Source: an uncultured Alphaproteobacteria bacterium (GTDB taxonomy: Bacteria > Pseudomonadota > Alphaproteobacteria > Rs-D84). From it: DNA of 64,000 nt. Position numbers and translations under genes: made by a program. Location of the stretch: the NCBI GenBank assembly GCA_963931495.1, contig OZ007020.1:363338-427337 (forward strand). The letters run 5' to 3'. The notes beneath the pieces were generated by a model. It ran no database searches, was not told the origin of the DNA, and saw only the letters and a list, made by a program, of their open reading frames with translations. This document shows positions 1,520 to 62,167 of the stretch, one piece after another. Every line of letters starts with the position of its first letter. Position 1 is the first letter of the stretch.

Positions 1520-2983
1520 ATGAAAAAACTGCTTAATACGTGGATATTTGTTTTTTTTGTGTGTGTTTGTTGTGATGTGATGGCCCAGGCTGTTGTTGGG
1601 GCTGGTGATGGGCCGGAGATTGTACAAGTCTGTCAGGTGAATTGTAGAGAAGTAAAACCAGTGGATGACCCAAATTGGGTTTGTTCAGAGGCGGGGGTCA
1701 CTTGTACAGCGGGATGCTACAAAAATCCTTACGAGGCCGAGGATGGAACACAGACAGCAAACTGTCAGGCGTGTGGTATTGGAACGTATATTGAATCCCC
1801 TGACCACGTCAGTCCGGCGTGCGATGATTGCAAGAAACCAGACAATGTTGCAAATACGGTTGTTAATTTTGTTGAAGATTCGGCGGACGTATTAAATCCA
1901 GATGTTAAGGATTGTACAGAGGATGGTTCTAATAATTCGTCATGTATATTAACTGGGCGTACATTAGAGTACGGATGTCCATGGATGGTAACGTGCGAAG
2001 ATGGATATTTTTGGAATGGCAGCCAATGTTCAAACTGTACCAAAGGATACGAAGGAAATGGAAAGACGTGGACCATGGTTGCAACTGGGAATAAGTTGTC
2101 TGGCATCGCAAAGGATAATCGGTTAGAACGTTGTATCGGTATTGAATATACGATATCTTTACAAACAAATACATCGTATGCCGCGAATATAACGCCGGTT
2201 GCCAGTGGGATGCCAACGTCGGATGAATATAAAGACAAAAGCGTCGTTTTTAAGTTTGGCAGTGGATTTAAGAACGGAAGCAGCCATACAACAACGTTGC
2301 CCAGTTCGTATTTGCAGCCGTCAACGTCGTACTATACGTTAACGTTGCCCAGTTCGTATTTGCAGCCGTCAACGTCGTACTATACGTTTTTGGGGTATTT
2401 CAAAACGGCCGATGATTCAGAAGATACAACGCCTGTTATAAAGCCGGATGGCACGGGTCAAGGGGCGGAATCTGCGGATTTGCGTGATAATAATACACTG
2501 TACGCGCGATATGAAATACATAATACCAGTGTATGGTACATGGATAAAAAACCACAGTCGTGGGGGAACGCGCCTGCGACCAAGGCAGAAGTTGTGTTTA
2601 CTGTAAAGAATCCAGAAGCAGACAGAAAGGTAAAGGCGTTGCCCAGCAATTGGTATCTGGATGGGAAAATTTTTGATTACTATGAGTGTTATAATGTAAA
2701 AACTGGTGCGGCGTGCCAGGGTAAAGTTGAATACGATCCGGGTGAATCTTTGATATTTTCAGATGATTTGGAACGTGTTTTGATTCCGCATTATCACGAC
2801 TGTCCCAAGGGACACTATTGCCCAAAAGGTGTGGAAAAGGATTGCCCCGCCGGGTCAACCACAAACAGCACGGGCCAGTCGCAGATTACCAGTTGCGTTA
2901 TGAAACCAACCGACAGTGGAACGAAATTTGTTGATCAATACGGAACCTTTTATTTGCCCAGTAATTCTGATATACCGTATTAA
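1520..2983 (+). CDS. Secreted cysteine-rich protein with ephrin-receptor/TNFR-like CxxCPxGxYC repeats
   Basis: Signal peptide MKKLLNTWIFVFFVCVCCDVMAQA. Repeated motifs CQACGIGTYIESPDHVSPACDDC and CPKGHYCPKGVEKDCPAGSTTNS. Internal 16-aa tandem duplication. Confidence 0.5.
   Translation: MKKLLNTWIFVFFVCVCCDVMAQAVVGAGDGPEIVQVCQVNCREVKPVDDPNWVCSEAGVTCTAGCYKNPYEAEDGTQTANCQACGIGTYIESPDHVSPACDDCKKPDNVANTVVNFVEDSADVLNPDVKDCTEDGSNNSSCILTGRTLEYGCPWMVTCEDGYFWNGSQCSNCTKGYEGNGKTWTMVATGNKLSGIAKDNRLERCIGIEYTISLQTNTSYAANITPVASGMPTSDEYKDKSVVFKFGSGFKNGSSHTTTLPSSYLQPSTSYYTLTLPSSYLQPSTSYYTFLGYFKTADDSEDTTPVIKPDGTGQGAESADLRDNNTLYARYEIHNTSVWYMDKKPQSWGNAPATKAEVVFTVKNPEADRKVKALPSNWYLDGKIFDYYECYNVKTGAACQGKVEYDPGESLIFSDDLERVLIPHYHDCPKGHYCPKGVEKDCPAGSTTNSTGQSQITSCVMKPTDSGTKFVDQYGTFYLPSNSDIPY
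2293..2388 (+). repeat. Perfect 48-bp tandem duplication (x2) inside the CDS, encoding TLPSSYLQPSTSYYTL twice
   Basis: aacgttgcccagttcgtatttgcagccgtcaacgtcgtactatacgtt occurs twice, back to back. Confidence 0.8.
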
Positions 2984-3106
2984 TTGATTTGATGTCCGTG
3001 GACTGTGTATTATATAACTTGACAACGTGGCGTTTTGTGCAACAATTGTAGTACGAATCGGGGAGCGGGTCAGAGAATACGTAAAGTTTGATAAAGGACA
3101 CGAAAT

Positions 3107-3502
3107 ATGAAAAAAGTTCTGGTTTCCGCAATTGCATTGACCGCTTTGACCGGATGCAGCGCATATTATGACTACTATAAGGGCGGCGTCAGATATACCC
3201 AAGATGGGCAAGATTGTATCTATTACGCCGGCGAATATGGACGTAATTTTTCCCAGTATGTCAGTGGTATTGATAATGGCAAAAAGATTGTCTATCGCAA
3301 CACACGGTGTGAAGACCTGTATGCGCGCGATACGTTTGGTTTGCCACAACGTAATGAACGCCAGGTTCTGGCCCCGGCGGCCCAAGAAGTGTCGTGCACA
3401 CAATGTGGTGCGTGTGGTGCCGAAACTGTTTCTTGCGGATGCGATTCTTGCGGTGCCCAGCCGGTTCTGAAACGCAGATATGTCATCGTTCCGGCGATGT
3501 AA
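3107..3502 (+). CDS. Small lipoprotein with a Cys-rich C-terminus
   Basis: MKKVLVSAIALTALTGCSAYY contains a lipobox (LTGC). C-terminus CTQCGACGAETVSCGCDSCG. Confidence 0.45.
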   Translation: MKKVLVSAIALTALTGCSAYYDYYKGGVRYTQDGQDCIYYAGEYGRNFSQYVSGIDNGKKIVYRNTRCEDLYARDTFGLPQRNERQVLAPAAQEVSCTQCGACGAETVSCGCDSCGAQPVLKRRYVIVPAM

Positions 3503-3633
3503 AGCAAACCAGATTTCGTTGACTTTTGGCGGCAATGCCGATGCTGTTCGGTGTTGCCGCTGTGTTTTTATCTTGCTTGAATCATGCGTGTTTTTGTGAT
3601 ACAATTGCTGTAACAGGTTAAAAGGGGATTCAT

Positions 3634-4014
3634 ATGAAAAAATTATTAAAGATTTTGGGTGTTGCTGGTATCATCGCAACCGTCGGTGCCGGCGGGGCAA
3701 TGGCGGTCGCGGCGGGCGGTGTCGGTGTTAATGATTCCGGACTGTGCATGTTAATCGGGCAAATGTATGGCGTGTTCAAAATATTACGTACGTTGGCGTT
3801 TGTTGGGGCTGCGTTCATTATCGCTGGATGGGCATGGACATATATTTCCAAAGGCAAGGTTGAAATGGAGGACCTGAAAGCCAAAGGTACAGGCATGTTG
3901 GTCGGGTTCGTATTGTTGTTTGGTATCGGTATTGTGTTACAGTTCTTCTTGTCATCAGCCGGGTTGGGGATGATTGGATGCGAAAATGTAATACTGCAAT
4001 GGGGATTGAATTAA
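3634..4014 (+). CDS. VirB2/TrbC-like type IV secretion pilin candidate (small protein with a signal peptide and two TM helices)
   Basis: Long signal peptide MKKLLKILGVAGIIATVGAGGAMA. The mature part NDSGLCMLIGQMYGVFKILRTLAFVGAAFIIAGWAWTYISKGK...MLVGFVLLFGIGIVLQFFL resembles the VirB2 arrangement (..NNICTFILGPFGQ..IGISWMFGR..hydrophobic helix 2). Confidence 0.35.
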   Translation: MKKLLKILGVAGIIATVGAGGAMAVAAGGVGVNDSGLCMLIGQMYGVFKILRTLAFVGAAFIIAGWAWTYISKGKVEMEDLKAKGTGMLVGFVLLFGIGIVLQFFLSSAGLGMIGCENVILQWGLN

Positions 4015-4042
4015 AAAAACGGCCAAATGGCCGTTTTTTATT
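4014..4042. terminator. Bidirectional Rho-independent terminator between convergent genes
   Basis: aaaaaaacggccaaatggccgtttttta. Confidence 0.6.
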
Positions 4043-4094
4043 GTTCTGGCGTAAATACCCCGGGCGTGGGCCCAAGGAATTATTTATTTTATTT

Positions 4095-5045
4095 TTATCG
4101 CTGTAAAACCTGGGGCGCGAATTGTTGAATAAATTTTTGTTCCGCGTTTTTGAATTCACGCGATATATTGGTGACTGATTTTTTGAATATGTCTTGTTCT
4201 GGGGCGATTCCAGTCTTTTGTATCATGCGAACGCGTGCAGACACCAGTTCTTCGTATAATATATCGGCAAAACGTTCAAATCGCATATGTGGGGTCGTGT
4301 CCCATGTGGCAATGGCGTTGCATATGCCCCGCCGGCGTGACAGTAATGACTGGGCCCCCATATAATTTGACAGTGGGTCATTGTCGTATATCGGAATGTC
4401 GTGACCGATTTTGATGTCGTTTGCGTCGCGACCATAGAAAAACGCACGGTGCATATAATAATGAAAATGGCGCATGTTGGCATGATTACGATGGGCAATG
4501 CCGTTGACCATGTGTTCTGCGCGTGCCAATTCATCACGCAATGATATGCGGGCGTATTGGTATGTTTGGTTGTATATATCACCGAATGTCGCGTTCGGCA
4601 TCATAAAATATGTCTGGGTGAATATCTGGCGTGGCCATTGACGCATTATTGACCAGCATGCATATCGGGTTAATTTGGCGTCTGGGGCGTTTGTTTTGTT
4701 TATTGTCTGGTTGCCGTCATTGATTTGATAGTTGTTATGTATCGTCGCAATGTGACCAGTATAGAAATTATAAAAGTTTTGCGGAATACGTTCGTTATCT
4801 GAATTATGTCGGCGGATTTTTTCAAATGTTTTGCGATTAATTGCGTCGCGACCAATTGTGTCAATGTCGTCGTGGTGACCCATGTATAATGGACCAAATA
4901 AATTATATAAATCAGAAAATAACCAATATTCGCATTCGGATGTTATGGCGGCGCCAGAAAACAGGGTGGGGGGATTATCGTCATATGTGCTGTGGGTGCA
5001 ACGATTCAATTGATTGTAAATATTTTCAGATTTTTCGTGTGCCAT
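4095..5045 (-). CDS. Hypothetical protein (316 aa), no recognisable family
   Basis: Long ORF flanked by terminators. Its codon usage is consistent with its neighbours. Confidence 0.4.
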   Translation of the reverse strand: MAHEKSENIYNQLNRCTHSTYDDNPPTLFSGAAITSECEYWLFSDLYNLFGPLYMGHHDDIDTIGRDAINRKTFEKIRRHNSDNERIPQNFYNFYTGHIATIHNNYQINDGNQTINKTNAPDAKLTRYACWSIMRQWPRQIFTQTYFMMPNATFGDIYNQTYQYARISLRDELARAEHMVNGIAHRNHANMRHFHYYMHRAFFYGRDANDIKIGHDIPIYDNDPLSNYMGAQSLLSRRRGICNAIATWDTTPHMRFERFADILYEELVSARVRMIQKTGIAPEQDIFKKSVTNISREFKNAEQKFIQQFAPQVLQR

Positions 5046-5067
5046 TTTTTGTCCCCTGGGGTGATTA

Positions 5068-5310
5068 TTATTTTTGTTCTTCTATGTTCGCCAATGAAAA
5101 CAAAACAGACGAAATCAATGATTGGTATGGGACGTGTTGTTGATCGGCCAATTGTTTTATGCGTTCCAAAATCTGGTGCGGAATGCGCATGTTTATCACA
5201 CTGTCAGATTTATTAAATGCGCGATATGCCGCATATTCTTTCAGTAAAGATTCTATGTTCATTATGAACAGTTGTTGCATTACGTTTGGCATACACAACC
5301 CCCTATACAT
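5068..5310 (-). CDS. BrnA-like ribbon-helix-helix antitoxin with no adjacent BrnT toxin gene
   Basis: C-terminal INMRIPHQILERIKQLADQQHVPYQSLISSVL matches the BrnA RHH signature (..LRLPeel...lk..A...GiPYQtlI..). The true start may be the internal Met at 5262. Confidence 0.45.
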   Translation of the reverse strand: MYRGLCMPNVMQQLFIMNIESLLKEYAAYRAFNKSDSVINMRIPHQILERIKQLADQQHVPYQSLISSVLFSLANIEEQK

Positions 5311-5512
5311 ACGGCAATACCGCCGTCTTTACAACGAACTATACCATTGTATTGGCATTTGTCAATACATTTGTAATTGCGGGTGTATGCACGGGTGTGA
5401 TGGCGTTTGTAGGGGCGTGTGTGTGACACTGTTTTTGGGGCGCAAAATCTTGCTTTTTATGTTTTGCGCATATAAAATTATTGTGTCTTTTGTTCGCAGG
5501 AAAGGTTCAGAT

Positions 5513-6832
5513 ATGATAAAGAAAATAATCTTTGGTGTGATGGCCGTAATGATGATTGCGTTTCCGGTCCATGCAGAAATCAAGGTTGATATTATTGCAA
5601 ATGCAGCCGAACCAATATCGGTCGCAGTTCAGAAAATTGAACCCGTTGGTGATGTTGATGCAGACGATCTGGAAATGATACGTGATGTTGTTGATGCAGA
5701 TTTGAAATCAACCGGACTGTTTCGTATTGTGTCGCGTGATGCGTTGCCTGAATTTGTAAAAATGGGAAATATGCCTGATTTTGAACTGTGGGATGCGGTG
5801 CGTGCCCAAGTTCTGGTCCAGGCAAAATTGGCCGCGGAATCTGGGGGGCGGTACAGTTTGGAATTTTATGTATGGGATGTAAATGGCCGTGAACAGATAG
5901 AAGCACAGAGTTTGGTCGCATCACGTAAATCTGTGCGGCGGTTGGCGCATATTATGGCGGATGCAATTTATGAACGTCTGACCGGTGAAGTCGGATATTT
6001 TGATACGCAAATTGTATTCATTGCGGAAACAGGACCTGTTGGTAACAGAATAAAGCGGATGGCAATAATGGACCAAGATGGTCATGGAATGCGATATTTA
6101 TCAGATGAAGATACTTTTGTTATGTCGCCCCATTTTTCGCCGAATATGCAAACAATTGTGTTTTTGTCTTTCCGTGATGATGATCCAATGGTCTGGACGC
6201 TGGATTTGGAAACAGGGGAACAGCGTCGGTTGGGCCAATTTGGCGGGATGAACTTTGCCCCGCGGTTTTCGCCAGATGGTACTAAAATTGCACTGTCGTT
6301 GGTTAAAAACGGCATAACGCACATATATGAATACGACATTGAGTCAAAAAAGTTGCGTCAATTAACCTTCGGGCGTTCGCTGAACACCAGTCCGTCTTAT
6401 TCCCCAGATGGTAAAAAAATGGCTTTTAATTCTGATCGCAGTGGTAACCAGCAAATTTATGTGTTGGATCTGGAATCAGGGGATGTGGAACGTATAACAT
6501 ATGGGGCTGGGCGATATGCAACCCCGGCATGGTCCCCAGATGGGCAATTTATCGCATTTACAAAAATTGCCGACGATACGTTCTATATTGGCATTATGAA
6601 TCCGCGGGGACGTAATGAAAAAATATTGGCCGGTGGATGGTATATGGAGGCCCCATCCTGGGCCCCGGGTTCACGGCGTCTGGTGTATTATGAAACAGAA
6701 AAGGCACTGGATGGTATTGAACGTATCAGTCATATTCGCAGTGTGGATATTACCGGACAGAATATATATGATATTGAATTGCCAGATGGTATAAATGGGG
6801 TTGAACCAACGTGGTCACCAAAGTTGCCCTAG
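5513..6832 (+). CDS. tolB: Tol-Pal system beta-propeller protein TolB
   Basis: Signal peptide MIKKIIFGVMAVMMIAFPVHA, a TolB N-domain and repeated FSPDG / SPDG propeller motifs. The ORF track began it at 5159, a spurious 5' extension. Confidence 0.8.
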   Translation: MIKKIIFGVMAVMMIAFPVHAEIKVDIIANAAEPISVAVQKIEPVGDVDADDLEMIRDVVDADLKSTGLFRIVSRDALPEFVKMGNMPDFELWDAVRAQVLVQAKLAAESGGRYSLEFYVWDVNGREQIEAQSLVASRKSVRRLAHIMADAIYERLTGEVGYFDTQIVFIAETGPVGNRIKRMAIMDQDGHGMRYLSDEDTFVMSPHFSPNMQTIVFLSFRDDDPMVWTLDLETGEQRRLGQFGGMNFAPRFSPDGTKIALSLVKNGITHIYEYDIESKKLRQLTFGRSLNTSPSYSPDGKKMAFNSDRSGNQQIYVLDLESGDVERITYGAGRYATPAWSPDGQFIAFTKIADDTFYIGIMNPRGRNEKILAGGWYMEAPSWAPGSRRLVYYETEKALDGIERISHIRSVDITGQNIYDIELPDGINGVEPTWSPKLP

Positions 6833-7224
6833 GGCTGGGGATTTCATTGATATCGGGCGTGGCATATGCGATGCCGGCGGTTGTTGACTATGTGATTGAC
6901 GGCGATACGTTTGGCGCACATGTGTTGGTAAGTGACGATATCAATGTTGATGTGCGTGTACGAATCGCAAATATTGATGCCCCAGAAATTCATGGTCGGT
7001 GTGAATTTGAAACGATGTTGGCACACCGGGCCCGTGACCGGTTGGCGGAATTGTTGCCAATTGGTGAATCCGTTGATTTAACAGATGTTCGTGATGATAA
7101 ATATCTGGGGCGTATTGACGCCCGTGTTATTCATGCAAAACATGGCGACGTTGGCCGCGTTATGATGACAGAAAATTTAGCGCGCAAATATGATGGCGGG
7201 CACCGTGATGGATGGTGTGATTAA
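6811..7224 (+). CDS. Staphylococcal-nuclease-like (SNase/thermonuclease) secreted nuclease
   Basis: VIDGDTF...VRIANIDAPE...YLGRIDARV pattern typical of the SNc fold. Carries a signal peptide. Occupies the position where pal normally follows tolB. Confidence 0.55.
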   Translation: MVTKVALGLGISLISGVAYAMPAVVDYVIDGDTFGAHVLVSDDINVDVRVRIANIDAPEIHGRCEFETMLAHRARDRLAELLPIGESVDLTDVRDDKYLGRIDARVIHAKHGDVGRVMMTENLARKYDGGHRDGWCD

Positions 7225-7235
7225 GTGCACAGTTA

Positions 7236-7415
7236 ATATATTACTTGCAAAACTACTATAAAACCAGTACCGAATGCAAAGAATGTCCATCGCCAGGTAC
7301 CAGTGATAACAATAATTCAAATGGAATTACAGATTGTTATATCCCGGCGGGTACCACCGGCAGTGATTCAACCGGTTCGTTTATGTATGTATCTGATTGT
7401 CATTATTCAAATTAA
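7236..7415 (+). pseudogene. C-terminal gene fragment of the ephrin-receptor-like Cys-rich secreted protein family, with no start codon
   Basis: Open frame IYYLQNYYKTSTECKECPSPGTSDNNNSNGITDCYIPAGTTGSDSTGSFMYVSDCHYSN*. It resembles the C-terminus of the 17423..18298 protein (CTPCPSHSSGT...ECYVIPNKFTGSDTTGS). It is only 59 codons long and lacks both an ATG and an RBS. Confidence 0.35.
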
Positions 7416-7441
7416 AATCCCGCAATATGCGGGATTTTTTA
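7414..7441. terminator. Bidirectional Rho-independent terminator
   Basis: aaaatcccgcaatatgcgggatttttt. Confidence 0.6.
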
Positions 7442-8146
7442 TGCACTGTGGCGGTTGATGGCCGCAGATATTTCGTCCAATGATGCGTTACAAGGTAACA
7501 TGGGTTCAAACCATACATTTGCCGTGCCTGGGCGCATTTTTCCACGCTTTGGCCAGTACAGTCCCGTATCTGTTCCAACCGGTAATATTGGTAATTTTAA
7601 TTCATGGGCCAGAAATAACAAACCGCGTTTTAATTTTACTTTTTGTCCCGGCTTTGCACGTGTGCCTTCGGGGAATATTATCAGTACCATGCCGTCCATA
7701 ATCTTTTTTGCCACGGCGTTTGTTAATTTATGCATGTTTGTTGCACCACGTGCACGATTTACCGGCTGTAACCCCATGCGCCAAAATGCCCATCCGTAAA
7801 TCGGAATCCACAATAATTCGCGCTTTATTATAAAAAATGCATGTGGCAATTTGGTTGTTAATATCGCAACTTCCAGTATGGACATGTGTTTTGCGGCAAC
7901 AATCGCTTTGCCATCCAGACGTATGTTTCCGTTTGGGGTCATTGGGATACCATTTTCTTCGTTTGGTGGAAAATGCAATGTGTACTTTATCCCAGCGACC
8001 AATCGGGCAATGCCCAGCACACCGCGCGCGCATGTGCGTATTAAAAAACGTATTAATGATTTGGATATTAACCCAATTAACAAAATCGGTGACCATAAAA
8101 CAAAATACAGTCCCAGTGTAATTTTGAAAAGAATTGTTCTGAACAT
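7439..8146 (-). CDS. plsC: 1-acyl-sn-glycerol-3-phosphate acyltransferase (PlsC family lysophospholipid acyltransferase)
   Basis: LIIFPEGTR motif and a KHMSILEVA (HX4D/E-like) motif. N-terminal TM segment. The ORF track extends to 8200, overlapping the upstream gene. Confidence 0.6.
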   Translation of the reverse strand: MFRTILFKITLGLYFVLWSPILLIGLISKSLIRFLIRTCARGVLGIARLVAGIKYTLHFPPNEENGIPMTPNGNIRLDGKAIVAAKHMSILEVAILTTKLPHAFFIIKRELLWIPIYGWAFWRMGLQPVNRARGATNMHKLTNAVAKKIMDGMVLIIFPEGTRAKPGQKVKLKRGLLFLAHELKLPILPVGTDTGLYWPKRGKMRPGTANVWFEPMLPCNASLDEISAAINRHSA

Positions 8147-17422: not shown

Positions 17423-18298
17423 TCAACTGCCGGTGGTATCACTGCCGGTGAATTTATTTGGTATAACATAGCATTCTGTTATAGAAACAGTGCCAGGGGT
17501 TGCAGAACCGCCAACACCGATAGAGCCGTCGTTTATTTCGCCCGGGCCGGCGGTCGTTTGGGTACCAGATGAATGCGATGGGCATGGGGTGCAATATGAT
17601 ACTATGCTGCCGGCGAAATTTGCATTAGGTACCCCGTAAAATCCCTTGGGGCATCGCGTTTGTTTATTCATGTACGTCATGCATCTGTTGCCACTGCATG
17701 CTTTCTTTGTGCGGACCTGGACCGCGTTTGAACCACTGTATGCCATTTCCCATGCTGTTGGAACGCATGTTGATTCATCGCATGTGCCACCAGTGGTGCC
17801 ACCACCACCAGTATTGCTGGCCAAAGAATCACTCATACATTTATAATAGGTTACATTACTGCATCCCAAAATAGTGTGTTTTACGCGTGTGTATCCAGAT
17901 TTACATCCGCTGGCGGATTTAATATAGTATTGAATACCATCTGCATCAAAACATATGTTTGTGGTACCTGTGGCCCCAGGATCGCCCATCACAGATGCCG
18001 TTGAACCAAAGTCTATGAATTCCGTGCGTTCATATATATTGGTGCATCCCGCAGACAGGCATTGAGCATATCCACCGCCGCCGCCACCACCACCACCGGA
18101 ATCGCCACAGCGACGACAACATGCGGTGTTTACAATGTCAAGGCATGTCATGCATCCACTGATGCATTCGGATACGTTATCCCAATCTAAGTATGATTCA
18201 GGAATGTTGGCACTGAATGCAGGCGTATTGAAACACAGGCAACATAACACAGAAAACACCCCGCCATGCCAAATGGCGGCATTTGATTTTATATACAT
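17423..18298 (-). CDS. Secreted cysteine-rich protein with ephrin-receptor/TNFR-like repeats and a poly-Gly tract
   Basis: Signal peptide MYIKSNAAIWHGGVFSVLCCLCFNTPAFSA. GGGGGGGGGG run. Motifs CTPCPSHSSGT, CPKGFYG and CKSGYTRV. The start is taken at an internal Met; the ORF track gives 18343. Confidence 0.5.
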   Translation of the reverse strand: MYIKSNAAIWHGGVFSVLCCLCFNTPAFSANIPESYLDWDNVSECISGCMTCLDIVNTACCRRCGDSGGGGGGGGGYAQCLSAGCTNIYERTEFIDFGSTASVMGDPGATGTTNICFDADGIQYYIKSASGCKSGYTRVKHTILGCSNVTYYKCMSDSLASNTGGGGTTGGTCDESTCVPTAWEMAYSGSNAVQVRTKKACSGNRCMTYMNKQTRCPKGFYGVPNANFAGSIVSYCTPCPSHSSGTQTTAGPGEINDGSIGVGGSATPGTVSITECYVIPNKFTGSDTTGS

Positions 18299-18396
18299 AT
18301 TTTTGTCTCCCACTTTTGTTGTTGTGAATGCCGAATTTGTCATTCACAACATTTGCATTTATTATATAAAATTTTGCATGTGGGTTCAATCGCAAA

Positions 18397-22770: not shown

Positions 22771-23769
22771 ATGGCACATCAATTCTTTTTTAATCCGTTT
22801 ATATTGGATAACTTGCCGACACCAAGTGCGGGATTTGATGTGGTCCAGGATATATCTGAACCGCGTCTGCGTATGTATATCACCAGTCGCGGGATAAAAA
22901 CATTCTTTGTGCGTAAACGTGTACATGGGCGGGACAAGCGTATAATAATTGGAAATTATCCGGATATTGATGTTGAAACAGCACGTGGAATGGTGCCATC
23001 TGTGTTGGCGCGCGCAATGGAAAAACCACGCCGTCGCAATAAAAAAATTACAATGCGCAAATTTCTGGATATATATTTGACGAACCGAATTCGCAGAAAC
23101 AGTTATTCGCGCGAAAAATTGGAACGCGCAATAAGACGGCATCTGTCACCACTGTTTGATATGCCATTGAATGAAATTTCAGATGCTGATATTGCCAATG
23201 TTATCATATGTATCCATGGCCCGGCCATCGCAGCCCGTATGCAGGATTTGTTACAAAGTGTTTACAAGTATGCAATTGATAATGGGTATGCCAATGAAAA
23301 TCCAGTTGCGAAATTACAGAAAATAAAGCCTGTGCGTCGTGTGCGGCCGTTGAATATGGCGGGGTTCCATCGGCTGGTGGGGGCAATAAAACGCGAACCT
23401 GTCCAGAATTTGCGCGCGGCGTTTTTAATGCTGGTGTACGGTTTCGCACCGAAATCACGTGTCTTTGCAATGCAATGGCGTGACCTGGATTTTAACCTTT
23501 ATATGTGGAATGATTGGCCACTGTCTGATGCCGCGGTTGTTTTGTTACAGGATTTGCCGCAAAATGGCCGTTGGGTATTTCCTGGACGGGGACGGGGGCA
23601 TTTGACAGATCCGCGTGTCGCATGGCAGCGGATTGTGACCAAGGCCGGTATCCCAAATGTGACAATGGACGATGTGCATAAATTCTTGATGCGACAATTG
23701 GTCTGGGCCCCAGACAAGGAAGATATTCGTGCAAATATGAATGATGTTTTGGTAAATGCGCTTGGTTGA
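22771..23769 (+). CDS. P4-type (tyrosine recombinase family) integrase homolog, short and probably catalytically degenerate
   Basis: N-terminal arm-binding signature LRMYITSRGIKTFFVRKRVHGRDKRIIIGNYPDIDVETARGM (compare L.L.V.PSG.K.W..RYR..GK....LG.YP..SLA.AR). The C-terminal region lacks an obvious HxLRHT...Y catalytic box. At 332 aa it is shorter than the typical ~400 aa. Confidence 0.5.
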   Translation: MAHQFFFNPFILDNLPTPSAGFDVVQDISEPRLRMYITSRGIKTFFVRKRVHGRDKRIIIGNYPDIDVETARGMVPSVLARAMEKPRRRNKKITMRKFLDIYLTNRIRRNSYSREKLERAIRRHLSPLFDMPLNEISDADIANVIICIHGPAIAARMQDLLQSVYKYAIDNGYANENPVAKLQKIKPVRRVRPLNMAGFHRLVGAIKREPVQNLRAAFLMLVYGFAPKSRVFAMQWRDLDFNLYMWNDWPLSDAAVVLLQDLPQNGRWVFPGRGRGHLTDPRVAWQRIVTKAGIPNVTMDDVHKFLMRQLVWAPDKEDIRANMNDVLVNALG

Positions 23770-27486: not shown

Positions 27487-27563
<77 letters not shown>

Positions 27564-49435: not shown

Positions 49436-49468
49436 ATAAAAAAATCCGCGGATGCGGATTTTTTTTAT
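49436..49468. terminator. Bidirectional Rho-independent terminator
   Basis: aaaaaaatccgcggatgcggatttttttt. Confidence 0.6.
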
Positions 49469-53189: not shown

Positions 53190-56066
53190 ATGAAAAAATT
53201 ACTGACCAGTATGATAATTTGCCTGGGCTTTATTGCCGGTGCGGATGCGGCGGTACGCAGCCAGTCGGCAACAACGGTTAATCGTGGGGCGGCGGCAACA
53301 AATACGTCAACGCGTGCAACGGCAACGGCGCGTGCGGCAACCACGGCGCGCAGTGCAACGCAACCACGGGCCACAACGGCGCGCGCCGCCACAACGGGGC
53401 GCACCACGGTCAGTCGTACCAGCGCCGCAACATCATCAACACCAACAGTCGCGGCGCGTGCCGCCACAACACAAAAAGTGTTGAATGCCGGTACCAGTGT
53501 CCAGGCGGCAAATGAAAATATTGTTGTCAGTGCAGATTGTCGCCAAAAGTATTATGGATGCATGGATTCGTTCTGTATGCTGGATAATGACAGTGGTGGG
53601 CGCTGTATTTGCAGTGACAGAAATGCTGAACTGGATGCCATTTTAGACAAAATTCAACAACTGGACCAGCAAAGTTATCAAATGGCAACGTACGGTGTTG
53701 AACGTATAGAAATGGGGGCTGATGCGGATGCGGCAATCGCAAATGCAAATGCTGTGGCACAGTCTATTATTGATTCTGTCCCAGAAGAAGAACCAGCCAA
53801 GCGAGAGTTTAAGTTGGATTTATCATTATGGGATACGTCCAGTTTATATTCAGATAATGTATTTGATGAAACTGTTATGGTTGACCCGATTGAAGGTAAA
53901 GAAGGTGACGCGTTGTACCAGGCATCACACGCCATTTGTGCACAACAAATACCAGAATGTGCCGCGGATATGAATATGCTGCAATTAATGTATGCACAAC
54001 AAATTCGTTCAGATTGCAGCGCGTATGAAAACAGCCTGAAACAGCAACAAAACGCCAGTGCACAAAAATTGGCCGCCGCAGAACAGGCGTTGCGCAGCGC
54101 GGCACTGGAACAATATCGCAGCGCAAACAAGTATGATCTGGGGCAATGTACGGTTGAATTCAAAAATTGTATGATAACAACCGGTGGGTGTGGCGATGAC
54201 TTTGCCGGCTGTGCAACAGTTGCGGCGTTTGATGCAACAAATACACGCGGTCGGGCCAGTGATGCAGAAAAATATTCAATCAAAGGCGCTGTTACAGAAA
54301 TAGAAATTAATGCGTCAACGTACGATATTTTGTTGTCTAAAAAGCCGTTGTGCGAAAGCGTGACTCAGCAATGTGTTAATGTTGCCGATCAAGTTTGGGA
54401 TACTTTTTTGCGTGATATTGCGCCCCAGGTAAAGTCAGCGGAATTAATTGCCGAAGATAATGCGCGCCAAAATTGCATTGGTAACATATCGTCATGTTTT
54501 CAACAGGCGTGTCGTGATACCATGGATCCAAATGATCCAGATGGTTCGTATGATATGTGTCTGACACGGCCAGAAACAATGCTGGACTTATGTACAGTGC
54601 CGTTGAATGCATGTGAAATTTCTACGACGTCGGCGGCCGAAGCAGAGGCGTCGCCAATATGGGAATTTGTGGTTGCGCGTTTGCAATCAATGCGTGTGAA
54701 TTCGTGTACAACCCAGGTTAAAGAATGTCTGCAATCCGAAGACAGATGTGGTTCGGATTATACGCAGTGCATCGGTATGGATTCGTATACGATTATTCGG
54801 ATGTGTCCACAAGAATTGCTGATTGGATGCCAAGGATATGATGGTGGCACCACCAGGGGGGTAAGTTCAGACAGCCAGGATGCGTTCTATTCCAGTTTGG
54901 AAAATATGATTCAAGGTATATTCTTGAATATTGATAACAACATGTTGGCCGAATGCCAGAATGCCGCGAACGAAGCAATGATAAGTGTTTGTGGGGATAC
55001 GGAAAATTGTGACAGTTTGGCGGTTGATGATTCTGTGGGGGCAAATACGTTGGAATACAAGATATGCCAAATAAAATCGGGATCTGGTACAGATATTGAT
55101 TATAACAATTGTGTGACTGATTTGTCCCAGATATCTGATGCGGCGTTGGGACGTGGCGGCGGCAAGGCAGCAAATTATGCAATTGTAATTGATGGTGAAA
55201 TTGATTGGGGCGAAATATCGTTTGATGACGAAGGACGCGTTGTGTTGGGCGATGTTCCAGATACCACAACCACATCAGACACGACCGCCACAGCAAATGC
55301 AAACGCCAGTGTGGCAACTGTTGCAAACGAACCGTTGACAGCGGCGACAACATTGCAACCGGTTATCGCATTAAACAGAACGCCGGTGGTTACAACAACG
55401 GCCCCAGAATTGGCGGCGTCGGAACAAGAACTGAATGCAGAATTGGTGTTGTTACAGAATAATATTAATAATGCGATTAACACAATTGAATCAAATGCCC
55501 AGGTTAATTTCTGTATGACGGGGCGCGAAGTTCAAGGTATCCGCAATGTCGTTGACAGAACGCAAGAAGGGGGCCGGTTCCCAAGTCTGACCAAGCAAAT
55601 GCGTATGCTGATTGCGTCGTCGGCAATCAAGGCGGCAATGGATAACTATTATGAAAGATATGAAGAACTGACGCAAAGAAAGATGCAAGACTATGTCACG
55701 ATGAATGAACGTATTGCGGAAATAAATAATCAAAATACGTTGGATGCACGTCGTGAAGCAGCGCGTATCGCGTGTGTTGAATTGGCCGAAAGTGATGGCG
55801 CATCTGGTGATGATACAGAAAATTCAACCCAGCAAAGCACAACGGTTGCATCATTAAACGGCCAACCGGGTGGACCGTTGGCGGGTGCCAGAGAGACCGC
55901 AAACGATTGGAATTATAAAGAAACAATAACATCAACGTTTGATTGGGAAACATTGGCCTGTACCAGATGCACACGTAAACAAAATTGTTTAGATCCCAAG
56001 GGTGGCAGAAGGTTCTGTAAAGAATGGGAAGATCCAGTTGAAACATGCACAACGGTTGAATTCTGA
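53190..56066 (+). CDS. Large secreted cysteine-rich protein, tandem paralog 1 (958 aa)
   Basis: Signal peptide MKKLLTSMIICLGFIAGADA. Arg/Ala/Thr low-complexity region (ARAATTARSATQPRATTARAATTGRTT...). Multiple Cys-rich modules (CRQKYYGCMDSFCMLDNDSGGRCICSD...). C-terminus ...CKEWEDPVETCTTVEF. Confidence 0.55.
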   Translation: MKKLLTSMIICLGFIAGADAAVRSQSATTVNRGAAATNTSTRATATARAATTARSATQPRATTARAATTGRTTVSRTSAATSSTPTVAARAATTQKVLNAGTSVQAANENIVVSADCRQKYYGCMDSFCMLDNDSGGRCICSDRNAELDAILDKIQQLDQQSYQMATYGVERIEMGADADAAIANANAVAQSIIDSVPEEEPAKREFKLDLSLWDTSSLYSDNVFDETVMVDPIEGKEGDALYQASHAICAQQIPECAADMNMLQLMYAQQIRSDCSAYENSLKQQQNASAQKLAAAEQALRSAALEQYRSANKYDLGQCTVEFKNCMITTGGCGDDFAGCATVAAFDATNTRGRASDAEKYSIKGAVTEIEINASTYDILLSKKPLCESVTQQCVNVADQVWDTFLRDIAPQVKSAELIAEDNARQNCIGNISSCFQQACRDTMDPNDPDGSYDMCLTRPETMLDLCTVPLNACEISTTSAAEAEASPIWEFVVARLQSMRVNSCTTQVKECLQSEDRCGSDYTQCIGMDSYTIIRMCPQELLIGCQGYDGGTTRGVSSDSQDAFYSSLENMIQGIFLNIDNNMLAECQNAANEAMISVCGDTENCDSLAVDDSVGANTLEYKICQIKSGSGTDIDYNNCVTDLSQISDAALGRGGGKAANYAIVIDGEIDWGEISFDDEGRVVLGDVPDTTTTSDTTATANANASVATVANEPLTAATTLQPVIALNRTPVVTTTAPELAASEQELNAELVLLQNNINNAINTIESNAQVNFCMTGREVQGIRNVVDRTQEGGRFPSLTKQMRMLIASSAIKAAMDNYYERYEELTQRKMQDYVTMNERIAEINNQNTLDARREAARIACVELAESDGASGDDTENSTQQSTTVASLNGQPGGPLAGARETANDWNYKETITSTFDWETLACTRCTRKQNCLDPKGGRRFCKEWEDPVETCTTVEF
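54177..54712 (+). repeat. 536-bp tract with a single mismatch to 57002..57537 in the downstream paralog
   Basis: Seen in sequence. The identical antisense ORFs 54376..54612 and 57201..57437 in the ORF track confirm it. Confidence 0.8.
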
Positions 56067-56080
56067 TTGGGACGGGATAA

Positions 56081-58954
56081 ATGAAAAGACTGGTTGCGAT
56101 TTTATTAATGTTGCTGGTTATTCCTGGGGCGGATGCGGCAACACGCGGACAGAGTGCAACGGTGTCGCGTGGAAATGATGCGTCGTCGTCCACTGCAACG
56201 CGGGCGACCGCGGCGCGTGCCGCAACCACAGCACGTAGCGCGGCGGTGCCACAAACGTCGGCACGTGCCGCCACATCGGGGCGCACCACGGTCAGTCGTA
56301 CCAGCGCCGCAACATCATCAACACCAACAGTCGCGGCGCGCGCCGCCACAACACAAAAAGTGTTGAATGCCGGTACCAGTGTCCAGGCGGCAAATGAAAA
56401 TACTGTTATCCAAAATCAGTGCCTTGAAAAATATTATGGTTGTATGGATTCGTTCTGTATGCTGGATAATGAAAATGGCGGTCGCTGTATTTGCAGTGAT
56501 AAGAATGCAGAATATGATCAAATCTTGGCGGATATAGAACGTTTGGACCAGCAGAGTTATCAAATGGCGACTGTTGGGGTGGAAAGTATTGAATCAGGAT
56601 TTGATGCAACAGCGGCGATAAGTTCGGTGGTGAAAGATGACAGTGGTGTTGATTTGTCACTGTGGGACGCATACACCGTGATGGATGATTTGGATTCGGG
56701 TTCTGCAAATCCGTTAAGTGGCAAAGAAGGGGATGCGCTGTTTAATGCATCGCACCAACTATGTGCCCAGCAAATGCCCGAATGTAATGAACAGTTAAGT
56801 ATGCTGTCACTGATGTATCGCCAGCAAATTCGTTCCGATTGCACGGCGTATGAAAACAGTTTGAATCAACAAAAACAAGCCAGCCAACAAAAATTAGCCG
56901 CGGCCCAAACGGCGTTACGCCAGGCGTCATATGAACAACTGCAAGCGGCGAATAAGTACGACTTGGGTCAATGTACGGTTGAATTCAAAAACTGTATGAT
57001 AACAACCGGTGGGTGTGGCGATGACTTTGCCGGGTGTGCAACAGTTGCGGCGTTTGATGCAACAAATACACGCGGTCGGGCCAGTGATGCAGAAAAATAT
57101 TCAATCAAAGGCGCTGTTACAGAAATAGAAATTAATGCGTCAACGTACGATATTTTGTTGTCTAAAAAGCCGTTGTGCGAAAGCGTGACTCAGCAATGTG
57201 TTAATGTTGCCGATCAAGTTTGGGATACTTTTTTGCGTGATATTGCGCCCCAGGTAAAGTCAGCGGAATTAATTGCCGAAGATAATGCGCGCCAAAATTG
57301 CATTGGTAACATATCGTCATGTTTTCAACAGGCGTGTCGTGATACCATGGATCCAAATGATCCAGATGGTTCGTATGATATGTGTCTGACACGGCCAGAA
57401 ACAATGCTGGACTTATGTACAGTGCCGTTGAATGCATGTGAAATTTCTACGACGTCGGCGGCCGAAGCAGAGGCGTCGCCAATATGGGAATTTGTGGTTG
57501 CGCGTTTGCAATCAATGCGTGTGAATTCGTGTACAACGCAATTCAAAGAATGTTTGCAATCCGAAGACAGATGTGGTTCGGATTATACACAGTGCGTTGG
57601 ACTGGATACAGATACAATCGTGCGGATGTGCCCGTATGACGCGTTGCCCGGATGCCAGCAGGTTTATGGCAGTAATGAAATTCGCGATGATGCCGTATAT
57701 GACGAATTATATGAATTCGCCCAGGGAATATTCTTGGGCATAGACAACAATATGTTGGAATATTGCCAGTCTGCGTTGGATGAAGCGGTCATAGAAGTTT
57801 GCGGTTCAACAGATTCCTGTGACCAGTACATGTTAAATCAAGATGTTGGTACGCGTTCATTGGATTACAAAATCTGTGATATCCAGGTTATTGATGGTAC
57901 GGATATTGCGTATTCAAATTGTCGGACAACGGCATCGCAAATAACAGATGTTGAATTGGGACGCAATGCAACCGGACAAATTTCACCGTTGGGTGGCGTT
58001 ATTACAGGTACAATTTATTGGGACAGTGTTGATGTTGACAGCAATGGCAACATTACCCCGGTTGATGAATATTTCGTAAATGCAGATTTGACAGATGCAT
58101 CAGATTCAGAAAAAGAAATGGTGGCGTTGGAATTGGGGGCGTTACAGACCAATATAGATATGGTGTTTGGTATGATTGAATCTGACCCGACCGTACAATT
58201 CTGTATGAGTGGCCGTGAAGTTCAGGGTATTAAACCGTATTCTGGGGAAACAAAACCACGGTTCCCAGAATTAACCAAACAGGTACGTATGCAGATTGCA
58301 ACATCGGCACTGAATGCCGCGCGGGATAATTATTACCAGCGATATGATGAATTAAATGAACAAATGAGCAAAGATAATATTGAAATCGCCGAACGTATTG
58401 CCGCGGTCAGTGGTGAAAATGCAAAAGATGTTCGTCGTGAAGCCGCACGCCAGGCATGTGTGAACTTGGCAGATATGTCTGGTATGCCAAAGTCAGAGAC
58501 ACCAAAATCACTGGTTGGAACAATTATTGCCGCCGCGGTTATCGCGACATCGGCGGTTCTGATTACAGTGTTCAGTGCAGGGATTGGTGGGTTGGTCGGG
58601 CTGGCAGCAACAGTTACAGCCAAAAGCGCCATTGTCGCGGCGGCACCAATAGTATATGTGGCCGCCGGGTCAGCCGGACTGGGGGCGGTCAGTGGATGGA
58701 TCCAAGGGGCCGCAACGGCGGATTATTCTGGTGCCCAGGTTACAAACGAAGTCAAGGATTTAACAGGGTATTTTGAAAATAAGCAATGGAATTACGAAGA
58801 AACAATTACAACAGAATTCAATATGGATACTCTGGTTTGTCACAAGTGTGTAAAATCACGTCAATGTGCGAAAATAAAAACACCATTGTTTGGCAGCAAG
58901 TCTTGCAAGCAATGGGAAGAACCAATTGAGGTTTGTTCAGATATTGAGTTTTAA
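56081..58954 (+). CDS. Large secreted cysteine-rich protein, tandem paralog 2 (957 aa), with an additional C-proximal hydrophobic/TM region
   Basis: Signal peptide MKRLVAILLMLLVIPGADA. The same architecture as paralog 1. An extra segment LVGTIIAAAVIATSAVLITVFSAGIGGLVGLAATV...AAGSAGLGAVSGWIQGAATADY. C-terminus CKQWEEPIEVCSDIEF. Confidence 0.55.
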   Translation: MKRLVAILLMLLVIPGADAATRGQSATVSRGNDASSSTATRATAARAATTARSAAVPQTSARAATSGRTTVSRTSAATSSTPTVAARAATTQKVLNAGTSVQAANENTVIQNQCLEKYYGCMDSFCMLDNENGGRCICSDKNAEYDQILADIERLDQQSYQMATVGVESIESGFDATAAISSVVKDDSGVDLSLWDAYTVMDDLDSGSANPLSGKEGDALFNASHQLCAQQMPECNEQLSMLSLMYRQQIRSDCTAYENSLNQQKQASQQKLAAAQTALRQASYEQLQAANKYDLGQCTVEFKNCMITTGGCGDDFAGCATVAAFDATNTRGRASDAEKYSIKGAVTEIEINASTYDILLSKKPLCESVTQQCVNVADQVWDTFLRDIAPQVKSAELIAEDNARQNCIGNISSCFQQACRDTMDPNDPDGSYDMCLTRPETMLDLCTVPLNACEISTTSAAEAEASPIWEFVVARLQSMRVNSCTTQFKECLQSEDRCGSDYTQCVGLDTDTIVRMCPYDALPGCQQVYGSNEIRDDAVYDELYEFAQGIFLGIDNNMLEYCQSALDEAVIEVCGSTDSCDQYMLNQDVGTRSLDYKICDIQVIDGTDIAYSNCRTTASQITDVELGRNATGQISPLGGVITGTIYWDSVDVDSNGNITPVDEYFVNADLTDASDSEKEMVALELGALQTNIDMVFGMIESDPTVQFCMSGREVQGIKPYSGETKPRFPELTKQVRMQIATSALNAARDNYYQRYDELNEQMSKDNIEIAERIAAVSGENAKDVRREAARQACVNLADMSGMPKSETPKSLVGTIIAAAVIATSAVLITVFSAGIGGLVGLAATVTAKSAIVAAAPIVYVAAGSAGLGAVSGWIQGAATADYSGAQVTNEVKDLTGYFENKQWNYEETITTEFNMDTLVCHKCVKSRQCAKIKTPLFGSKSCKQWEEPIEVCSDIEF
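57002..57537 (+). repeat. Second copy of the 536-bp tract (1 mismatch); candidate gene-conversion tract
   Basis: Identical to 54177..54712 except ccggctgtg / ccgggtgtg. Confidence 0.8.
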
Positions 58955-58960
58955 TAAATA

Positions 58961-58990
58961 GAAAATCCCGCCAATGTCGGGATTTTTATT
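58961..58990. terminator. Bidirectional Rho-independent terminator
   Basis: aaaatcccgccaatgtcgggattttta. Confidence 0.6.
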
Positions 58991-60145: not shown

Positions 60146-62167
60146 ATGCAAAATTTGCTGAAAATGTTTGGCGTATCCGTTGTTGGTTTGGGAATCTGTG
60201 CGTTCGTTGGGGGCGCGTATGCGGTGGATACCAGTGCTGGGCGTGCGGCATATAATACGGTGCAATCTGCGCGGGCCGGTGCCACATCCCAGGCGCGTAT
60301 GCCGACAATGCCGTCTTTGCCAATTAATGCGGTTGGAAATTTGTCCCCGAATGTGTCGGTGGATAATGGGAATAATAATGATGATGGCGGTGGAAATGAT
60401 GGTAACCCGGATATTCCCCCAGAACCAGAATGCCCAGATGGCGGGGTTAAAAATTCTGAATATACAGTGGATGATTGTATGAATGATATTCTGGCATGCA
60501 TAAACAATGGGGCATTGCCGGGTGGGTTGAACGACATGTTTAACGAAGATCTGCGTAACGCGATTGTTAATGGAATGGGACTGTGTGCAACCCAGGTTGA
60601 CAGATGTATTACAGATGTGCGGCGCGATTGTGAAAATGTATATCGTTCGTCGGCAGATGTCTGGATTGATTTTAATTCGCGCAAGGTGCAACCGGAATAC
60701 TATAACTTTGTATTGCGCAAAACGGGCTTGACCCCGAACCAGGCGGAAAATACATGCGAATTGTTGGACAGAAATGTTTATGGTTCTTCGTTTAATGCGG
60801 TGTCAAATTCGGGTACTGTTACCGCAGAATATAATAACCGGGTTGGCGCGTATAACAGCCAAAATGGAAATGTGTTGGTTAAAACAACACCCCAAGGCGT
60901 CCAGGTTAACAGTAATGACAATTCCGTAGATGGCCAACGTGGGCACTATGCACGATGGGATCCGACAACTGCAGAATGCTGGTTGCGGGTGGCGGCCTAT
61001 AACAAGGATACACATATTAAAAACAGTTGGCTGTTCGGTGCCGCTGGGAATGACCAGCCCGCCGAAGTGTGGCGTCTGGCCGGGGATACGTTTACGTGCA
61101 ATCGCGATCTGTTCGGATTTTCTTTGATGAATCAAACAAATACCGCGGCCGTTGTTGGTATCGGTGGTGGTACACTGTTGGGTGTCGGGGTTGGTGCAAT
61201 TGCCGGACATGGTGAACGTGCGTTTAACTGTGATATCAAAAATCATCGCGATATGTTGATGTCGGCGTTAAAGCAAAATGATTCTGTGGGCAAGGTGAAT
61301 AAATATCTGGGGGCCGGTGTTCAATTGTCTGTGATTGATGACACTATGACACGCGAACAATGTGCGGCGGTTGTTACCCTGTATGATAACGCGGTCAGTA
61401 ATTCGTTGTTGGTGACAACGGATATATCTGGGACAATGACGTTGGATATCCAGGCGGTTTGTGCCGCTGGCCAGGCAGAGGCTGATTGCATCAACGCCAA
61501 TGCACGTGGGTGTGCCGATGCGGGTATAACCACAATTGCGGCGTGCCAAGATTTCTTGTCAGGGCAATCTTGTGTCAATATGTCGCCGGATGAATGTATT
61601 GATTACTTGGTGAATGATTTGGGTGTGAACAGAAATGCGATTACGGTTGAAAGCGTGTCGGAAACAACGATGGTCACAACCCAAGAAGCCAGCGATATTC
61701 GTGCAATATTTACCAGCGATGTAATTGATTTAATGCAAAATGGCGATGATTCTAATATGGGCAAGGCAATTGGTATTGGCGCCGCGGCCGGTGCCGGTGC
61801 CGGTGGATTGGCCACAGCGATAACGGCATTTGTTGAACGCAGTAATATTAATTGCCGCGTTGGTGATGGTCTGGCCCAGGTCGGATATGGTAAATCGTAT
61901 GCGATTGAATCGTTAAAAGATTTCTATGTTAAGTGGAATTTGAATTTACCGGATACTGTATCGCCGACGGCCACGGTTGTGGACTGTGATTCATGGCGGC
62001 GTGCATGTGGCACAATCAAAGATTTGAATCAATGTCCACATGTTCAGATTAATTATCGGCCGGCCGGGGCGGCGACAACAACACTGATACCATCGGCATG
62101 TGCCGTATCGGGCAGTGAATGTATTGAAAACTATCCGGTGGCAAAATCGTTTGGTGCATGTAAGTAA
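60146..62167 (+). CDS. Secreted cysteine-rich protein (673 aa), function unknown
   Basis: Signal peptide MQNLLKMFGVSVVGLGICAFVGGAYA. Gly/Asn/Asp-rich linker. Many paired Cys residues. Gly-rich hydrophobic patches. Confidence 0.5.
   Translation: MQNLLKMFGVSVVGLGICAFVGGAYAVDTSAGRAAYNTVQSARAGATSQARMPTMPSLPINAVGNLSPNVSVDNGNNNDDGGGNDGNPDIPPEPECPDGGVKNSEYTVDDCMNDILACINNGALPGGLNDMFNEDLRNAIVNGMGLCATQVDRCITDVRRDCENVYRSSADVWIDFNSRKVQPEYYNFVLRKTGLTPNQAENTCELLDRNVYGSSFNAVSNSGTVTAEYNNRVGAYNSQNGNVLVKTTPQGVQVNSNDNSVDGQRGHYARWDPTTAECWLRVAAYNKDTHIKNSWLFGAAGNDQPAEVWRLAGDTFTCNRDLFGFSLMNQTNTAAVVGIGGGTLLGVGVGAIAGHGERAFNCDIKNHRDMLMSALKQNDSVGKVNKYLGAGVQLSVIDDTMTREQCAAVVTLYDNAVSNSLLVTTDISGTMTLDIQAVCAAGQAEADCINANARGCADAGITTIAACQDFLSGQSCVNMSPDECIDYLVNDLGVNRNAITVESVSETTMVTTQEASDIRAIFTSDVIDLMQNGDDSNMGKAIGIGAAAGAGAGGLATAITAFVERSNINCRVGDGLAQVGYGKSYAIESLKDFYVKWNLNLPDTVSPTATVVDCDSWRRACGTIKDLNQCPHVQINYRPAGAATTTLIPSACAVSGSECIENYPVAKSFGACK

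Follow-up and report, generated by a model that had tools for sequence, protein, structure and literature searches.

Evidence for a recent gene conversion between two tandem paralogs of predicted exported, cysteine-rich proteins in an uncultured gut alphaproteobacterium

The stretch of DNA analysed here, 64,000 nucleotides of contig OZ007020.1 from an uncultured alphaproteobacterium of the lineage Rs-D84 (referred to below as the window), contains two adjacent paralogous genes on the forward strand that raise a simple question: why do two proteins that have diverged over most of their length share a segment of coding DNA that is almost free of differences? The first gene, g1 (53190-56066, +), is an open reading frame (ORF) of 958 amino acid residues, and the second, g2 (56081-58954, +), is an ORF of 957 residues. 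The two proteins are 66% identical over their whole length. Both are Cys-rich and predicted to be exported, and an Ala/Gly-rich hydrophobic segment is present in g2 and absent from g1. The original prediction, made from the letters of the window, attributed the tracts of identity to gene conversion and likened the pair to antigenically variable surface proteins. The comparison with sister strains, with the alleles of the population and with trees of separate gene regions supports gene conversion as their cause, with g1 as the donor and g2 as the acceptor, and speaks against the antigenic analogy.

Two tracts of identity are found in the pair. The long tract spans 54177-54712 (+) in g1 and 57002-57537 (+) in g2, exactly as first predicted, and contains a single mismatch in 536 nt (at position 54209), which leaves a perfect run of 503 nt (54210-54712). 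It encodes residues 330-508, the most conserved part of the Cys-rich core. The short tract, of 126 nt with one mismatch at 53459, lies at 53395-53520 (+) in g1 and at 56277-56402 (+) in g2 on a diagonal of +2882, and codes for the conserved end (..VAARAATTQKVLNAGTSVQAANEN) of the basic region that is rich in Arg, Ala and Thr. This tract had also been noticed before and is real, but its second copy had been placed 1 nt off: when 53397-53521 is paired with 56278-56402, copy 2 is one base out of register and 93 of the 125 nt are mismatched. In the regions flanking the tracts the paralogs are about 55-80% identical, with 1.0-2.2 synonymous substitutions per synonymous site (dS) and 0.29-0.48 nonsynonymous substitutions per nonsynonymous site (dN). 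Since the genes are so diverged outside the tracts, the perfect run of 503 nt cannot be ascribed to chance; even at 90% identity its probability would be about 1e-23 (0.9^503).

The pair was compared with the corresponding loci of three sister strains, L001, L005 and L006, which belong to the same species, carry the same g1-g2 pair and have flanks 98.7-99.8% identical to the window. In columns 1000-1300 of the alignment, g1 and g2 are 100% identical in the window and 74-84% identical in the sister strains. The difference resides in g2. Inside the tract the window g2 is 73-83% identical to the sister g2, and it is 99-100% identical elsewhere, differing there only, while the window g1 is 97-100% identical to the sister g1 inside the long tract. 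Across the long tract the window paralogs differ by a dS of 0.017 and those of the sister strains by a dS of 0.40, compared with the flanking values of 1.0-2.2.

Positions at which g1 and g2 can be told apart in L001 as well as in L005 served as diagnostic sites. The window g2 is g1-type at 62 of 65 of these sites in one contiguous block (57061-57509) and g2-type at 657 of the 661 sites elsewhere. The overwritten block has minimum limits of 57061-57509 and maximum limits of 57035-57537. The recombination break-points that the original prediction had proposed to look for between strains could be located by these sites, together with the donor and the acceptor. Both window copies share three substitutions (54365, 54585 and 54616) that are peculiar to the lineage of the window, and the donor was therefore the g1 of the same genome. 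In this lineage, about 450-500 bp of g2 were overwritten by g1 sequence through non-reciprocal recombination between the two copies.

The same comparison bears on the possibility that the g2 tract, either of the window or of the sister strains, was imported from another strain or species by homologous recombination. Gut bacteria frequently recombine between strains, and the window g1 is slightly more diverged from the sister g1 in the tract (97-98%) than elsewhere. However, the window g2 tract matches the g1 of its own genome, including the three lineage-private substitutions. The sister g2 tract is 79-81% identical to the g2-type orthologs of the nearest species, which is about as similar as its flanks are and as expected from them. 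It therefore represents the inherited state and not an import. Among the 77 loci compared, no foreign donor closer to the tract was found, and none was near-identical to it. An import is thus improbable, and conversion within the genome is the preferred explanation.

The large converted block is present in one of the 13 full-length g2 alleles read from the 90% cluster of the species, that of the window, and the 12 others are unconverted. The g1 and g2 clusters comprise 39 and 53 members. The g1 alleles are uniform across the same population. The sister comparison and the population alleles together indicate that the conversion is recent, polarised and still polymorphic.

Parts of the identity appear to have a longer history. 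In the short tract, the dS is 0.03-0.09 in all three strains compared, against 1.0-2.2 in the flanks, and in the 3' part of the long tract the paralogs are 95-99% identical in all three strains. These two regions are attributed to older or recurrent exchange. A different explanation would be that the nucleotide sequence itself is held constant without any exchange, by an embedded RNA, by a regulatory or recombination site, or by extreme purifying selection. The tracts do code for the most conserved segments of the protein, the short tract is nearly identical in all strains, regions of high identity occur at the same position in other species, and a GC-rich hairpin lies within the short tract. 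This inverted repeat, present in both genes (53448-53470 and 56330-56352) and coding for VAARAATT, arises because the codons of Ala (GCN) and Arg (CGN) are complementary, and it is probably a by-product of codon content. A search of the locus against Rfam matched no family anywhere in it. Furthermore, the synonymous sites of the long tract are identical in the window only, and the long tract of the sister g2 differs at about 75 positions. The nucleotide sequence is therefore not constrained there, and constraint in place of exchange has only a small chance of being correct.

It was also considered whether the identical tract could have been produced by the collapse of a repeat, or by homogenisation of the consensus, during assembly or polishing, a possibility that the original prediction had raised against itself. 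Short-read assemblies of this species often break within the tract, leaving fragments of 445-513 residues, and contig L004 contains a suspicious chimeric third copy. However, 11 contigs encode exactly the window g2 protein, and ten of these contigs are between 0.2 and 1 Mb in length. These include s287.ctg000449c, a contig of 958,617 bp found in 4 samples, which is 100% identical to the window across 13,920 nt. Its name follows the hifiasm-meta style, in which the final 'c' marks a circular contig. In addition, a collapse cannot put g1 sequence into a gene that is flanked by g2-type bases at 657 of 661 sites. The occurrence of the converted allele on the 958,617-bp contig and on ten others makes an assembly collapse unlikely, and an artefact of short reads in particular is very unlikely, so the origin of the tract by gene conversion is retained.

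Many public gene models of g1 and g2 (P0127, P0132, P0133, P0137, P0141 and P0146) are fragments of 445-513 residues that end at or near the shared tract. In L004, a short-read scaffold, the region 1848-7879 contains g1, then a chimera of 936 residues, and then the start of a third g2-like gene. The chimera consists of the N-terminal half of g2 and the C-terminal half of g1 joined inside the shared tract, and its 3' half matches g1 at every position over 1554 nt. This arrangement is either a triplication by unequal crossover or an assembly loop that was walked twice. The practical consequence is that the tract breaks short-read assemblies and that chimeric gene models can result.

Tandem pairs are present in 16 of the species loci. 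Long perfect runs between the paralogs were found in L035 (1701 nt), L045 (848 nt) and L010 (437 nt), and the runs in the other pairs do not exceed about 50 nt. The core, N-terminal or central, contains all of the tracts. No conversion of the C-terminal third is seen in any of the 16 pairs, and in this part g1 and g2 are diverged with a dS above 1.6. In a tree of the C-terminal part, g1-type sequences group with g1-type and g2-type with g2-type across species, which places the duplication before speciation. When the tree is built on the N-terminal core, paralogs from the same genome are nearest neighbours in 7 species. The tracts in the different species represent independent events, and the overall outcome is concerted evolution of the core and not diversification. 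The C-terminal part seems to be kept apart by selection, or simply by excess divergence. Of the 16 pairs, 15 have the hydrophobic segment in the downstream gene and not in the upstream one, and species with a single copy mostly have the form with the segment.

Some additional observations were made on the family in other genomes. In other Enterousia species (L020, L023, L029, L033, L040, L055 and L063), additional and far more distant family members of about 715-890 residues are found 5-10 kb from the main gene, scoring 90-500 bits with the hidden Markov model (HMM) of the family. No such distant member was detected in the window with this HMM, which gives g1 a score of 1437 bits. Two loci, L035 (CAVGNU010000007.1) and L062 (CAZPLT010000001.1), were deposited as Bacteroides fragilis and Muribaculaceae, yet they carry the Enterousia gene family, and the rpoA of L035 is 94% identical to that of the window. 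These labels look like binning or labelling errors.

The outcome of the exchange bears on the analogy with antigenically variable surface proteins. In that reading, the swapping of segments between paralogs would vary an antigen at the cell surface that is exposed to the immunity of the host or to phage; Anaplasma msp2, Neisseria pilE/pilS and Borrelia vlsE are systems of this kind. The proteins are predicted to be exported and have a clade-specific variable Thr-rich region, the single conversion altered about 36 nonsynonymous sites of g2 relative to the other strains, and the g2 allele is polymorphic in the population. However, each locus contains one or two full-length copies with their own ribosome-binding sites, and no truncated or silent cassettes were found in the window or in the 77 loci; the same search detected no further family copy in the 64-kb window beyond g1 and g2. 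The tracts cover the most conserved core and not the variable tip, and the two copies become alike. Outside the conversion, the orthologs of different strains are 99-100% identical, with a dN of 0-0.007 and a dS of 0.007-0.09, and they are under strong purifying selection, with dN/dS far below 1. The g1 alleles are uniform, one derived g2 allele was found, and the locus adjoins rpoA-rplQ in a core synteny conserved across the genus. Antigenic or phase variation is already largely refuted by these data and is quite unlikely. Homogenising conversion of a conserved core describes them better.

The known systems with which the pair can be compared are tufA/tufB, the adhesin pairs babA/babB and sabA/sabB, the msp2, pilE and vlsE systems, chlamydial OmcB/OmcA and the Gly-zipper hairpins. 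The tufA and tufB genes of Salmonella and E. coli are likewise two full-length functional paralogs that undergo non-reciprocal, homogenising exchange, in tracts a few hundred bp long whose limits are set by existing similarity, and trees of the converted part group the paralogs within a genome. Unlike these genes, g1 and g2 are adjacent tandem copies homogenised in the core only, with the C-terminal third left at a dS above 1.6, and they would be clade-specific envelope proteins and not housekeeping translation factors. The babA/babB and sabA/sabB genes of Helicobacter pylori resemble g1 and g2 in coding for exported envelope paralogs that end in Phe and in undergoing segmental conversion that is polymorphic between strains. 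In the H. pylori adhesins, however, it is the variable ligand-binding region or the expression locus that is swapped, with a change of the adhesion phenotype, while the exchange between g1 and g2 involves the conserved core. Searches of Pfam and of structures found no sequence or fold relationship to these adhesins. The cassette systems of Anaplasma (msp2/p44), Neisseria and Borrelia share with g1 and g2 the segmental conversion of genes for exported proteins, and Anaplasma, like Enterousia, is an alphaproteobacterium with a reduced genome. However, g1 and g2 lack the architecture of an expression site with silent cassettes, and the cassette pattern of a hypervariable region between conserved ends is reversed in them, under strong purifying selection.

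Both proteins have the common architecture that had been recognised from the window. The signal peptide of g1, MKKLLTSMIICLGFIAGADA (53190-53249, +), contains a hydrophobic stretch at residues 4-22 and an AxA site, and that of g2 is MKRLVAILLMLLVIPGADA (56081-56137, +). The putative cleavage sites were assigned from the AxA motif, and both signal peptides end in ADA and are followed by Ala. A basic N-terminal region rich in Arg, Ala and Thr and a terminal Phe are also found in both ORFs. There are 39 Cys residues in g1 and 38 in g2, the extra Cys of g1 being located within the signal peptide. The Cys residues of the mature protein are invariant, 38 of 38, across 74 diverse members of the family. 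The spacing C-x6-C occurs nine times and C-x6-C-x6-C-x6-C twice. The AlphaFold2 (AF2) model consists mostly of long helices and a C-terminal beta domain. This domain comprises residues 892-957 of g2 (58754-58951, +; the equivalent part of g1 is at about 55908-56063) and contains five invariant Cys residues. The invariant residues are C920, C923, C929, C942, C952 and F957, and the strands span residues 895-956 with a predicted local distance difference test score (pLDDT) of 76-91.

The hydrophobic segment had been predicted to occur in the second paralog only, and this is confirmed, with the division into forms with and without the segment retained in the other species as described above. It is an uncharged segment of g2 rich in Ala, Gly, Val, Thr, Ile and Ser (residues 809-887; 58505-58741, +), with Kyte-Doolittle maxima of 1.6-2.4, and is a putative membrane hairpin. 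No hydrophobic run is present in g1 beyond the signal peptide. The corresponding segments of the homologs are 40-140 residues long, with 29% Ala, 18% Gly, 12% Val, no charge and a loose VAxPFTGG motif. Conserved Cys-rich domains flank the segment on either side, and the simplest topology would be a two-helix hairpin with both of these domains on the same, non-cytoplasmic side. It would be reasonable to regard g1 as the soluble and g2 as the anchored isoform.

An exhaustive profile search of 1.84 billion representative sequences (E-value at most 1e-3) assigned 899 clusters at 50% identity to the family, which marks it as genuine though restricted. Pfam gave no match for g1, g2, their neighbours or nine distant family members. 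For the family there was likewise no match in a sequence search of NCBIfam or a sequence-profile search of the Protein Data Bank (PDB), and no fold match to a solved structure. Separate Pfam searches at E = 10 with the hydrophobic segments, with the C-terminal domain and with the basic N-terminal region returned nothing. Searches of the literature on Enterousia and Rs-D84 yielded descriptions at the level of genomes and nothing on this protein family. The suggestion that the Cys-rich modules belong to an undescribed family is thus upheld. Conversion between bacterial paralogs is already well known; it is the protein family that is undescribed.

Several known types of protein were considered for the pair and rejected. 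A glycine-zipper hairpin family is not supported, as no Gly-zipper or Rick_17kDa_Anti profile matched any of four segments at E-values up to 10. The Gly-zipper hairpins (Rick_17kDa_Anti, SlyB-like) do resemble g2 in having an internal, uncharged Gly/Ala-rich segment of about 40-60 residues, the length of two helices, in an exported protein. However, g2 differs from these lipoproteins in the lack of a Pfam match even at E = 10, in the lack of a lipobox and in the segment length of 40-140 residues seen in its family. Lipoproteins in general were rejected since there is no lipobox (L-[AS]-[GA]-C), the signal peptides have the ADA ending given above, and that of g2 has no Cys. A beta-barrel outer-membrane protein (a BAM substrate) would agree with the invariant terminal Phe, but the model is mostly helical, with no more than a five-stranded sheet of about 60 residues at the C-terminus and no barrel. 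Sorting of the PEP-CTERM or LPXTG type was rejected because a folded domain of 65 residues, and not a basic tail, follows the hydrophobic segment. The chlamydial proteins OmcB and OmcA, and other envelopes cross-linked by disulfides, offer a parallel to g1 and g2: the proteins are large, Sec-exported and Cys-rich, the bacterium has a reduced genome and depends on a host or partner, and several genes for Cys-rich envelope proteins are clustered. No sequence or structural similarity to them was detected, however, and the fold of g1 and g2 is predicted to be mainly alpha-helical.

These features allow us to propose a role for the pair. The proteins g1 and g2 would be exported via Sec and would fold, once outside the cytoplasm, into long bundles of helices, which may be stapled by 19 disulfides formed from the 38 invariant Cys residues, many of them spaced C-x6-C. 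The Ala/Gly-rich, uncharged hairpin would hold g2 in the membrane, with g1 as its unanchored partner. The two could be abundant structural or cell-contact proteins of the envelope, possibly co-assembling through the shared core. From this we infer that g1 and g2 function as a core pair of envelope proteins.

The layout of the genes suggests a two-gene operon, as the stop codon of g1 and the start codon of g2 are 14 nt apart, each gene has its own ribosome-binding site (GAGGGG, 7-12 nt upstream of the start, for g1, and the purine-rich GGGACGGGA for g2), and a single terminator follows g2. This terminator is a hairpin with a GC stem followed by a run of T just 3' of the g2 stop (58962-58986, strand not assigned), recognised as a pattern match. 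It is likely to terminate the g1-g2 operon and possibly acts in both directions. A promoter scan of the locus found fewer sites than in shuffled controls and was uninformative. The codon adaptation of g1 and g2 is 0.64, compared with 0.64-0.74 for the ribosomal genes, and is above that of several other genes; this would be weak evidence at best for high expression.

The whole account, of an ancient pair, a recent conversion from g1 to g2 and a role in the envelope, is given a probability of roughly 0.8. Several points weigh against it. Sites 54410, 54650 and 54655 are g2-type in both copies; the exchange was therefore not purely from g1 to g2, and there has been some flow from g2 to g1 as well. 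The support for the reality of the tract is indirect, from assembled contigs, and the tracts in other species derive from short-read metagenome-assembled genomes (MAGs). The localisation, the disulfides and the membrane insertion are predictions from sequence and model. The hydrophobic segment is unstructured in the AF2 model, with a low confidence (pLDDT below 50), and matches no known family of membrane anchors. The codon adaptation is only borderline in its similarity to the ribosomal genes and therefore lends little support to a high expression of g1 and g2.

The alignment of the family contains 274 confirmed stretches in species-representative genomes. The named ones are Candidatus Enterousia or unclassified MAGs of Alphaproteobacteria or Rickettsiales, and the MAGs that bear the family come from human, ruminant, horse and chicken guts. 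Enterousia (order Rs-D84) is uncultured, with genomes of less than 1 Mb that are without most biosynthesis and respiration, and has been proposed to depend on partner cells (PMC12306168). The gene order at the locus is rpoA, rplQ, a DUF3419-like gene (-), the family gene or genes, a membrane protein of 332 residues (-), a Cys-rich protein of 673 residues (+) and an OmpA-domain gene (-). This order, from rpoA-rplQ to the OmpA-domain gene, is kept in about 51 of the 77 loci, and the family therefore belongs to the syntenic core genome, within a block of clade-specific envelope genes. Genes for TolB and MltG are present in the window and suggest an envelope with two membranes and peptidoglycan.

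Other ORFs of the window are also rich in Cys and have no family assignment. They are located at 60146-62167 (+; 673 residues, 25 Cys), 1505-2983 (+; 492 residues, 25 Cys) and 17423-18343 (-; 306 residues, 23 Cys). The 673-residue and 492-residue ORFs have N-termini resembling signal peptides, and the former contains two hydrophobic stretches rich in Gly and Ala. A profile-profile comparison of the family with this downstream 673-residue protein showed no relationship. The OmpA-domain protein is also Cys-rich; it starts at 62614 and extends beyond 64000 (-), cut by the end of the window, and has 950 residues in L007. It is conceivable, and rather doubtful, that g1 and g2, together with the neighbouring genes for Cys-rich, OmpA-domain and unknown membrane proteins, encode a helical, disulfide-stapled structure of the cell surface that has not been described before. 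In Candidatus Enterousia it would serve as the principal apparatus of the envelope or of partner contact, in which the paralogs would co-assemble via a core kept identical by conversion.

A few further features of the region may be recorded. Between rpsK and rpoA, in the ribosomal-protein cluster, the sister strains have an inserted cassette of about 1.7 kb (L001 4571-6264), which codes for an N6/N4 DNA methyltransferase and a TaqI-like restriction enzyme and is absent in the window (49462-49465). An ORF at 22771-23769 (+) with the N-terminal and central domains of a phage integrase lies about 4 kb from tRNA-Pro (27487-27563), the sole tRNA in the window. Of the 2-kb intervals across 1-64000, a single one lacks a positive GC skew, and the cumulative skew rises almost steadily; most of the large genes are on the + strand, which together with the skew fits a single replication arm.

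The analysis has thus defined a conversion in a genome of less than 1 Mb with its donor, acceptor, boundaries and population frequency, caught while it is still polymorphic. The core has been homogenised repeatedly across species, and the C-terminal part that distinguishes the anchored form has been converted in none of the 16 pairs. This pattern suggests that selection may limit concerted evolution. A family with 38 invariant Cys residues and without known relatives, located in the syntenic core of a gut lineage proposed to depend on partner cells, is therefore a sensible first target for the study of how Enterousia builds its envelope or attaches to its partners.

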